Shown one piece after another: positions 31,371-32,065 of a DNA stretch of 64,000 nucleotides. The stretch lies in NCBI RefSeq assembly GCF_003334335.1, contig NZ_QOWQ01000002.1. One strand, written 5' to 3'. The notes below the pieces were generated by a model. That model saw only the letters and a program-made list of their open reading frames with translations, made no database searches and was not told the DNA's origin. Within the stretch, counting starts at the first letter, position 1, and each line of letters opens with the position of its first letter. This DNA comes from Escherichia coli. Its GTDB lineage: Bacteria > Pseudomonadota > Gammaproteobacteria > Enterobacterales > Enterobacteriaceae. Position numbers and translations under genes: made by a program.

Positions 31371-31446
31371 GTATGTCGTACCTGTTTTTGGAATTCTTTC
31401 CGCAATAGTTTCATGCAGACTACCTGTAGTACGGGAAGCTGCTTAG

Positions 31447-31495
31447 AACACTATATATAGGGGGTATGTTTGGGATTCACTGCAAGATAGTGTGA
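31447..31495 (-). promoter_or_regulatory. Two candidate NrdR boxes in the nrdAB promoter
   Basis: On the coding strand: CACACTATCTTGCAGTG and CCCTATATATAGTGTT, spaced about three helical turns apart, 77-125 bp upstream of the nrdA ATG. Confidence 0.6.
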
Positions 31496-31524
31496 AAATG
31501 ACCCTCTTGCAAGTGCATAACTTT

Positions 31525-31533
31525 GTGGATAAC
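31525..31533 (-). promoter_or_regulatory. DnaA box (TTATCCACA) upstream of nrdA
   Basis: Exact 9-mer consensus on the nrdA strand. Confidence 0.6.
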
Positions 31534-32065
31534 TCAGGAAGGAAAAAGTGGCTTTCGCGCACCTTAGGTCAGACAAGGTGTCCGGGAAAGTCAATGGGAA
31601 GAGAAAAATTTGTTAAAAATAACTGTTCGGCGATTTCTTGAACGGCATAATAGGTTAGATAAATTGATATAGATGGTTTATTAATCTTTTTGCTAATGAT
31701 TGCAAAAATTGATCTAAGCACGAGTCATCACATAATCTGATGTATCAGTTGTGGTCAATATATAAGCGAATGTAAGAGATTGTTGATGGCGAAATGGTTG
31801 TTTTCTATTCGGTTATTGTTAAATGCTAAGCCATTTTGTTAATTTACCTTATATTATAAGAAAATTATTCATGACTTTAATTTAGTTTAAATATAACTGA
31901 TATCCCTGAAGGTTATTAACTTGAATTATGACGCACTGATATTATTCATCAAATAATAACAAAATAGCCATTGCACCGGGTTGAACAATTTACAAAAGAA
32001 AGATATTCCATATCGTATAATGCGATTAAATACGCCGTCTTATAGAAAATGATGGTTAGATTAAT

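Follow-up and report, generated by a model that had tools for sequence, protein, structure and literature searches.

The 64,000-nucleotide stretch of Escherichia coli contig NZ_QOWQ01000002.1 analysed here (the window) contains the promoter-operator of nrdAB-yfaE, the class Ia ribonucleotide reductase operon. The sites upstream of nrdA are very probably best explained by an operator for the repressor NrdR composed of two boxes in the nrdA leader (box 1 and box 2), a double DnaA box at the -35 hexamer and, overlapping the -10 hexamer, a third NrdR-like sequence of degenerate form (box 0). As its functional partner, box 1 very probably uses the downstream box 2, and not box 0. An earlier note on this DNA, made from the letters alone, had read positions 31441-31540 as an nrdAB control region with paired NrdR boxes and a perfect DnaA box. 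The locus was recognized correctly. The regulated gene nrdA (761 aa, 31370..29085, minus strand) was identified from the list of open reading frames (ORFs), the RefSeq annotation of an identical region and 100% identity to E. coli NrdA. The interval covers 71-170 nt 5' of the nrdA start codon, and all three strings quoted for it are found on the nrdA (minus) strand. The present analysis determined which sites occur, in what register and at what spacing, how they score and how far they are conserved; binding and nucleotide dependence are taken from published work.

The NrdR operator and the double DnaA box

NrdR boxes were ranked with a position weight matrix (PWM) trained on the four nrdHIEF and nrdDG boxes only (oligonucleotides of PMC12176259), with the nrdAB boxes excluded, and applied to 63,985 positions of the window. 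The best match is box 1, CCCCTATATATAGTGT (31463..31448, minus strand, approximately +15..+30; 16.9 bits, rank 1), followed by box 2, GTACTACAGGTAGTCT (31432..31417, minus strand, approximately +46..+61; 11.2 bits, rank 2). Box 0, TCACACTATCTTGCAG (31495..31480, minus strand), extends over the -10 hexamer and start site and reaches rank 19 with 7.8 bits. The names follow Rozman Grinberg et al. 2025 (PMC12176259). A matrix scan had been suggested as a check of the earlier note, and it places the downstream box of that note first and its upstream box below box 2. All six conserved positions (C4, A6, A8, T9, T11 and G13) are found in box 1. Box 2 has five of them, with G at position 9 (central AG), and is recognized as an NrdR box. 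Box 0 also has five, with C replacing A at position 6, and is not recognized as such from its conserved positions. The linkers are 16 bp from box 0 to box 1 and 15 bp from box 1 to box 2, both within the 15-16 bp expected of NrdR pairs, and the boxes lie in the promoter region at distances of 38 to 125 bp upstream from the ATG of nrdA. A search with the 16-mer consensus ACACWATATATWGTGT at up to three mismatches found box 1 only and missed boxes 0 and 2; the consensus is too strict for these two, and the PWM was therefore used instead. Among 300 simulated windows of first-order Markov composition, two reached the score of box 1, none contained a pair of the quality of boxes 1 and 2, and one contained a pair of the quality of boxes 0 and 1 at a spacing of 31-32 bp. 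The earlier note had given slightly different registers for its two 16-bp elements. Both elements are present, but the upstream one, CACACTATCTTGCAGTG (31494..31478), spans 17 nt and is published in the register TCACACTATCTTGCAG, and the downstream one, CCCTATATATAGTGTT (31462..31447), is a real box with its canonical register one base upstream, CCCCTATATATAGTGT. The proposed spacing of about three helical turns is accurate (32 bp centre to centre across the 16-bp linker).

The published binding data agree with the ranking of box 2 above box 0. NrdR is a Zn-ribbon/ATP-cone repressor that senses ATP/dATP (PMC12176259). It requires two boxes, and the six positions listed above are the key ones (2026 preprint from the PMC12176259 group). 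In microscale thermophoresis (MST) with ATP and dATP, NrdR bound a probe with boxes 1 and 2 with a dissociation constant (KD) of 113 nM (96 nM with ADP-dATP), whereas a probe with boxes 0 and 1 gave a KD >6000 nM and no binding under any nucleotide combination; ATP alone led to no NrdR binding (PMC12176259). Earlier electrophoretic mobility shift assays (EMSA) had found that mutation of box 1 abolished NrdR binding and that mutation of box 0 had no effect (PMC12176259). The 2026 preprint attributes the failure of box 0 to the C at position 6, as the C6A change raised affinity 10-fold. The A6C and C6A mutants show the weight of this position, and NrdR is reported to tolerate the AG at the centre of box 2. 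The pairing given in the earlier note was hence right about box 1 but not about its partner, since box 0 is unbound together with box 1 and box 2 lies outside the interval.

All three boxes could nevertheless act together in vivo, with box 0 as a weak auxiliary site that is occupied cooperatively after a tetramer has bound boxes 1 and 2, extending repression over the -10 hexamer. The linkers of 16 and 15 bp would place the boxes on one face of the DNA, and by PWM score each of them belongs to the top 0.03% of the window. The core of box 0 also shows no variation among the sampled E. coli, E. albertii and the Pseudocitrobacter locus described below, and NrdR is known to form higher oligomers and filaments (PMC12176259). 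The conservation of box 0 is explained by its overlap with the -10 hexamer and start site, however, and the described oligomers and filaments are ATP forms that do not bind DNA (PMC12176259). Together with the absence of binding to boxes 0 and 1 under any nucleotide combination, this makes an array of three boxes unlikely.

The classical model, in which the operator consists of boxes 0 and 1 (31495..31448) and NrdR occludes the -10 hexamer and the start site, is in our view still less probable, and it is largely refuted in vitro. This pair was annotated by Rodionov & Gelfand 2005 and Torrents et al. 2007 (PMC12176259) and remained the standing annotation from 2005-2007 until 2025. Its linker is in phase, box 0 ranks 19th of 63,985 positions, and a pair of this quality was met by chance in a single simulated window. 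In 69 of the 73 promoters of the S-type defined below, a homologue of box 0 is present at a 16-bp linker and reaches 7.5 bits or more, and mutation of the upstream box in Salmonella raised nrdAB expression (PMC2892513). Against the model stand the more than 6000 nM measured for boxes 0 and 1 versus 113 nM for boxes 1 and 2, the EMSA results for the two box mutants, the recovery of affinity through C6A, which identifies the C at position 6 as the cause, and the higher score of box 2 under an independent PWM.

The second regulator acts at a pair of DnaA 9-mers (consensus tested: TTATNCACA). DnaA box 1, TTATCCACA, matches the consensus at nine of nine positions (31532..31524, minus strand, approximately -55..-47 from the inferred start). 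DnaA box 2, TTATGCACT, matches at eight of nine (31520..31512, minus strand), and its last base falls inside the -35 hexamer. Together they form a double box, TTATCCACA-aag-TTATGCACT (31532..31512, approximately -55..-35), on the same strand with a 3-bp spacer and adjoining the -35 hexamer. A chromatin immunoprecipitation sequencing (ChIP-seq) study (Stringer et al. 2024, PMC11317965) found 16 regions bound by DnaA, among them nrdA with a coverage of 14x the control, and lists the nrdA site as gTTATCCACAaagTTATGCACTt, identical to 31533..31511. DnaA favours box pairs 2-3 bp apart on the same strand, mutation of either nrdA box disrupts binding, and only 13 of 32 genomic TTATCCACA sites were tied to a bound region (PMC11317965). 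The perfect DnaA box of the earlier note is thus genuine and listed by ChIP-seq, though binding needs the double box and the second 9-mer had been overlooked.

A lone TTATCCACA is unremarkable by chance in 64 kb. Two perfect copies were observed versus 0.46 expected, and at least two occurred in 9 of 100 shuffles. The chance of a tandem neighbour like TTATGCACT is approximately 0.006. The other perfect copy lies at 44868..44876 (minus strand), which coordinate arithmetic places inside the alpha-2-macroglobulin-family gene of a reference strain. A further DnaA-consensus 9-mer, TTATTCACA (36721..36729, minus strand), lies in the ubiG-gyrA divergent intergenic region. No tandem partner was noted for either site, and both are outside the 16 published bound regions (PMC11317965). 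That the motifs are chance matches in AT-rich intergenic DNA without a regulatory role draws on this single-site statistic, on the coding-sequence copy at 44868 that is absent from the bound regions and on the frequency with which the six conserved NrdR positions alone arise at random, but it is refuted, and has next to no probability, in view of the tandem second DnaA box, the best NrdR match of the window having a partner at exactly 15 bp, the conservation across 81 orthologs and the published ChIP-seq and MST data. The DnaA and NrdR features are real and non-random.

A mechanism for the promoter can be drawn from the published work. A DnaA dimer binds both 9-mers of 31532..31512 cooperatively. 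According to the literature, occupancy of the double box at low DnaA-ATP, or by DnaA-ADP, aids RNA polymerase, and high DnaA-ATP represses nrdAB via an additional ATP-specific site. A review (PMC8203912) describes two nucleotide-independent DnaA boxes and one DnaA-ATP-specific box at nrdA, with activation by DnaA-ADP or low DnaA-ATP and repression by high DnaA-ATP. Such control ties the synthesis of deoxyribonucleotides (dNTPs) to the initiation cycle. When dATP is plentiful, NrdR represses nrdAB, and ATP alone leads to non-binding NrdR oligomers and lifts repression. NrdR bound at +15..+61, downstream of the start, might block initiation or early elongation. The literature agrees with the coupling to nucleotide pools and replication initiation that the earlier note expected, as NrdR senses ATP/dATP and DnaA-ATP links expression to initiation.

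Several points weigh against this reading. The nrdA promoter hexamers are weak (8 of 12 consensus matches) and fall under the threshold of 9 of a sigma-70 consensus scan, which passed over the promoter. Box 0 is still an in-phase, non-random match (rank 19, one of 300 simulations), and an auxiliary role in vivo is possible. The role of box 2 draws mainly on in vitro work of one laboratory and the PWM ranking given here. All statements on protein-DNA contacts come from papers, the present analysis being one of sequence.

Conservation and possible exchange of promoter types

A 901-nt query around the control region found a match in every one of the 5426 complete E. coli genomes, often at 100% identity, and a 230-nt region is held by all of them, with at least 99% identity in 3830 records. 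Sites were compared in an alignment of the window and six further strains (seven E. coli sequences), together with E. albertii and L013, a locus on a 22.5-kb contig of a Pseudocitrobacter metagenome-assembled genome. The double DnaA box, the -35 hexamer, box 1 and the box 0 core are invariant in all nine. Within the seven E. coli sequences, box 2 varies at positions 1-2 only, and E. albertii and L013 retain its C4, A6, T11 and G13 despite a diverged linker and downstream leader. The few single-base differences among the seven E. coli sequences all fall off the key positions of the sites. As a separate observation, 13 bp (CGGAAAGAATTCC, 31390..31402, minus strand) are missing from the nrdA leader of E. 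coli JA0072 and RIVM_C040348. The gap lies between box 2 and the ribosome-binding region, and the same shortened BLAST match occurs in two other records.

Beyond E. coli, the ortholog set consisted of the 80 closest species loci from one genome-collection scan and four loci added by exact-protein look-up. These four, three Hafnia-like and one Cedecea-like, are NrdA matches at 92% identity from a protein listing of matches with at least 92% identity. Box 1 scores highly (13.3-18.8 bits) in all 82 upstream regions scored. The 81 promoters that were classed, on raw ungapped sequences, fall into two discrete classes, an S-type (73 of 81) and an E-type (8 of 81). The S-type is found in Salmonella, Citrobacter, Klebsiella, Enterobacter, Kosakonia, Buttiauxella, Pantoea, Erwinia and other genera. 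E-type promoters are those of the window, E. coli, E. albertii, L013 and four Hafniaceae.

S-type promoters carry their DnaA sites in the leader. A perfect TTATCCACA adjoins the 3' end of box 1 in 72 of 73, and a second DnaA box follows exactly 3 bp on in 60 of 70, mostly as TTAGTCACA, TTAGCCACA or TTACTCACA, which creates a leader double box. A further inverted DnaA box is located approximately 30 bp on in 64 of 73, and no DnaA box was found upstream of the -35 hexamer in any of the 73. The variant TTTTCCACA that appeared in S-type leaders was rejected as an artefact of an alignment restricted to reference columns, as the raw sequences show the perfect TTATCCACA. The -10 hexamer is TAGAAT or TAAAAT, directly upstream of box 0 in 72 of 73, with 11 extra bp compared with E. 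coli. Box 1 keeps its six conserved positions at all 73 S-type loci. The box 0 homologue is ACTCACCATATAGCGT (11.0 bits), with C at position 6, and in Salmonella and Klebsiella it precedes box 1, CCCCTAYATATAGTAT, by 16 bp. Box 2 is absent from all 73 S-type promoters and occurs only at Escherichia-type loci. In Salmonella, mutation of either box raised nrdAB expression, and only the mutant of the downstream box equalled an nrdR deletion (PMC2892513). These data fit a pairing of boxes 0 and 1 in the S-type, where NrdR presumably uses this pair.

E-type promoters have the order upstream DnaA box, CTTGCAA, 14 nt and CACTATCTTG, with box 0, the 16-bp linker and box 1. The -10 hexamer TATCTT lies inside box 0, and the arrangement TTGCAA-17-TATCTT is also found in Hafniaceae. 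The perfect DnaA 9-mer is present in all eight, and the tandem second DnaA box is clear only in the four Escherichia-type promoters. The conservation in orthologous promoters that the earlier note had named as a check is hence seen in part. Box 1 is conserved everywhere in near-invariant form and DnaA control as such is conserved too, but where the DnaA box lies (upstream of the -35 hexamer in 8 of 81) and which box serves as the NrdR partner differ between promoters.

Judging from the sequences compared, the promoter types do not follow the species tree. The nrdA coding DNA of L013 is 93-99% identical to that of Pseudocitrobacter vendiensis (L014) in most 200-nt windows from approximately 170 nt on, with 89% in the first window, and 80-92% identical to E. 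coli. The 430 bp upstream show the reverse, with 76-81% identity to E. coli and 41-46% to L014. The upstream neighbour in L013 is a divergent yfaL homologue, whereas L014 has ubiG and an S-type promoter. Because the coding DNA of L013 is P. vendiensis-like but its promoter E. coli-like, a recombinational replacement is plausible, and the pattern suggests that a control region of approximately 450 bp was swapped as an allele with a breakpoint near the nrdA start. An arrival of the E-type promoter together with a yfaL insertion was considered and rejected, as the loci L056 and L049 are partly yfaL-similar upstream yet S-type.

Copies of the E-type upstream half are carried by P1/P7-type phage-plasmids. 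A total of 235 E. coli plasmid records match 31542..31494 at approximately 90% identity. Copies were aligned from plasmid NZ_JBXRYI010000003.1 (L091 1440..1560) and phage P7 (AF503408, approximately 91.5-91.7 kb; L094 2440..2560). The copied part includes the upstream element described below, both DnaA 9-mers with their 3-bp spacer, the -35 hexamer TTGCAA and most of the promoter spacer. P7 is approximately 95% identical to the window over approximately 110 nt, an estimate read from the alignment, and diverges from the -10 region on. At the position of box 0, P7 has one strong NrdR-like box (13.3 bits), and no partner box was found at 15-16 bp in the P7 copy; by the two-box rule this is therefore not an NrdR operator. 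A conserved hydrophobic ORF of 45-46 aa lies approximately 300 nt downstream of the plasmid and P7 copies.

We tentatively suggest a joint reading, which has somewhat less than an even chance of being correct. There would be two nrdA promoter architectures built of the same types of sites in rearranged order, the control region would be exchanged as an allele, and the E-type upstream half would have been copied to P1/P7. If true, the DnaA and NrdR layout of E. coli would be a minority among enteric bacteria. Should the two layouts also work differently, E. coli would be an exception rather than the model for the control of dNTP synthesis by DnaA and NrdR, and DnaA might act as a downstream roadblock beside NrdR in the S-type and as an upstream activator and repressor in the E-type. 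If confirmed, promoter cassettes of an essential operon could swap between genera and be copied onto phage-plasmids.

Promoter anatomy and neighbouring genes

The nrdA promoter (nrdAp) is a probable sigma-70 promoter, TTGCAA-17 bp-TATCTT (31512..31484), whose position agrees with PMC12176259 and the 2026 preprint. The -35 hexamer TTGCAA (31512..31507, minus strand) and the -10 hexamer TATCTT (31489..31484, minus strand) were read from the sequence, and according to both papers box 0 covers the -10 region together with the start. Transcription is inferred to start at approximately 31480-31477, approximately 107-110 nt 5' of the nrdA ATG, which is then located at about +108.

Further upstream, two boxes for HusR (YnfL, of the LysR family) have been published for the ypaB/nrdA intergenic region in a 2026 paper (PMC12844172). 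The first, CCGGACACCTTGTCTG (31585..31570, minus strand), was found by a sequence match to Table 1 of that paper. The second, CACTTTTTCCTTCCTG (31550..31535, minus strand; same table), ends 2 bp upstream of DnaA box 1. In the ortholog alignment, CCGGACACCTTGTCTG sits in an upstream element, TTGAC-N13-CCTT...CTAAGG, whose conservation extends from E. coli to Erwiniaceae. An AT-rich stretch with a GC content of 21-35% extends over 31600-32050. It probably corresponds to the upstream AT-rich cis element to which the title of Sun et al. 1994 refers. The nrdA intergenic region showed no terminator-like sites, and an Rfam scan of 31000-32300 at E <= 1 matched no RNA family, so there is no evidence of a riboswitch or small RNA in the leader or AT-rich spacer. 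A search for inverted repeats found weak AT-rich repeats only, and the historical '45-bp inverted repeat' was not placed with confidence.

The annotated 47-aa coding sequence ypaB (31498..31641, plus strand) lies antisense to the nrdA -35 hexamer, the double DnaA box, the two HusR boxes and the upstream element. Two of the sampled E. coli strains have CTG in place of its ATG, and ypaB is not annotated in the matches from the more divergent strains. A homologous antisense ORF (Upf91.6) is present in P7. Rather than a gene, the ypaB frame may be a side effect of the conservation of the promoter DNA.

The RefSeq gene order at the identical region is gyrA, ubiG, yfaL, ypaB, nrdA, nrdB, yfaE, inaA, glpQ, and the remainder of the window spans menB to ompC. 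Following nrdA are nrdB (28851..27721, minus strand, start checked) and yfaE (27721..27467, minus strand, from the RefSeq annotation of the identical region). The nrdA-nrdB spacer of 233 nt (28852..29084, minus strand) is built of repeated units (gccggatgcggcgtaaacgccttatccggcctac...) resembling repetitive extragenic palindromes and bacterial interspersed mosaic elements (REP/BIME), and it is 88 bp shorter in strain 504239 according to annotated coordinates. On the other side, yfaL (32066..35818, plus strand) encodes an AIDA-I-type autotransporter and is an intact ORF of 1250 aa in the window. In strain 504239, itself 100% identical over the promoter query, the annotation gives the gene as frameshifted.

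Relation to known systems

The DnaA and NrdR sites of nrdAB are already known, and the promoter is among the best characterised in E. coli; footprinting, ChIP-seq, mutagenesis and measurements of binding have all served to map its sites. The point usefully corrected is the NrdR pair of the textbooks, boxes 0 and 1, which is superseded. NrdR annotation by eye or with old matrices would choose this pair and overlook the functional box 2.

The locus is the same as the E. coli K-12 nrdA promoter described by Tuggle & Fuchs 1986, Augustin 1994, Torrents 2007, Olliver 2010 and Rozman Grinberg 2025. The double DnaA box is letter-identical to the ChIP-seq site, and boxes 0, 1 and 2 are letter-identical to the MST oligonucleotides. 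The nrdHIEF and nrdDG operators likewise have two 16-bp boxes with a 15-bp linker and C4, A6, A8, T9, T11 and G13, and the published KD values are similar (138 and 160 nM for these two operators versus 113 nM for nrdAB boxes 1 and 2; PMC12176259). The nrdAB operator differs from them in the central AG, in place of AT, of its box 2, in its position wholly downstream of the start (+15..+61) and in the extra in-phase degenerate box 0 over the -10 hexamer. The double DnaA boxes of mioC, polA, purH, dnaA, rpoH and DARS1/2 resemble that of nrdA in having same-strand 9-mers 3 bp apart, one of them a perfect TTATCCACA (PMC11317965). Unlike other pairs of the DnaA regulon, the nrdA pair adjoins the -35 hexamer and, instead of repressing only, is reported to act as an activator when DnaA-ATP is low and as a repressor when it is high (PMC8203912). 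The S-type nrdAB promoters differ from that of E. coli by their leader double box TTATCCACA-N3-TTAGTCACA, the TAGAAT -10 hexamer and the lack of box 2.

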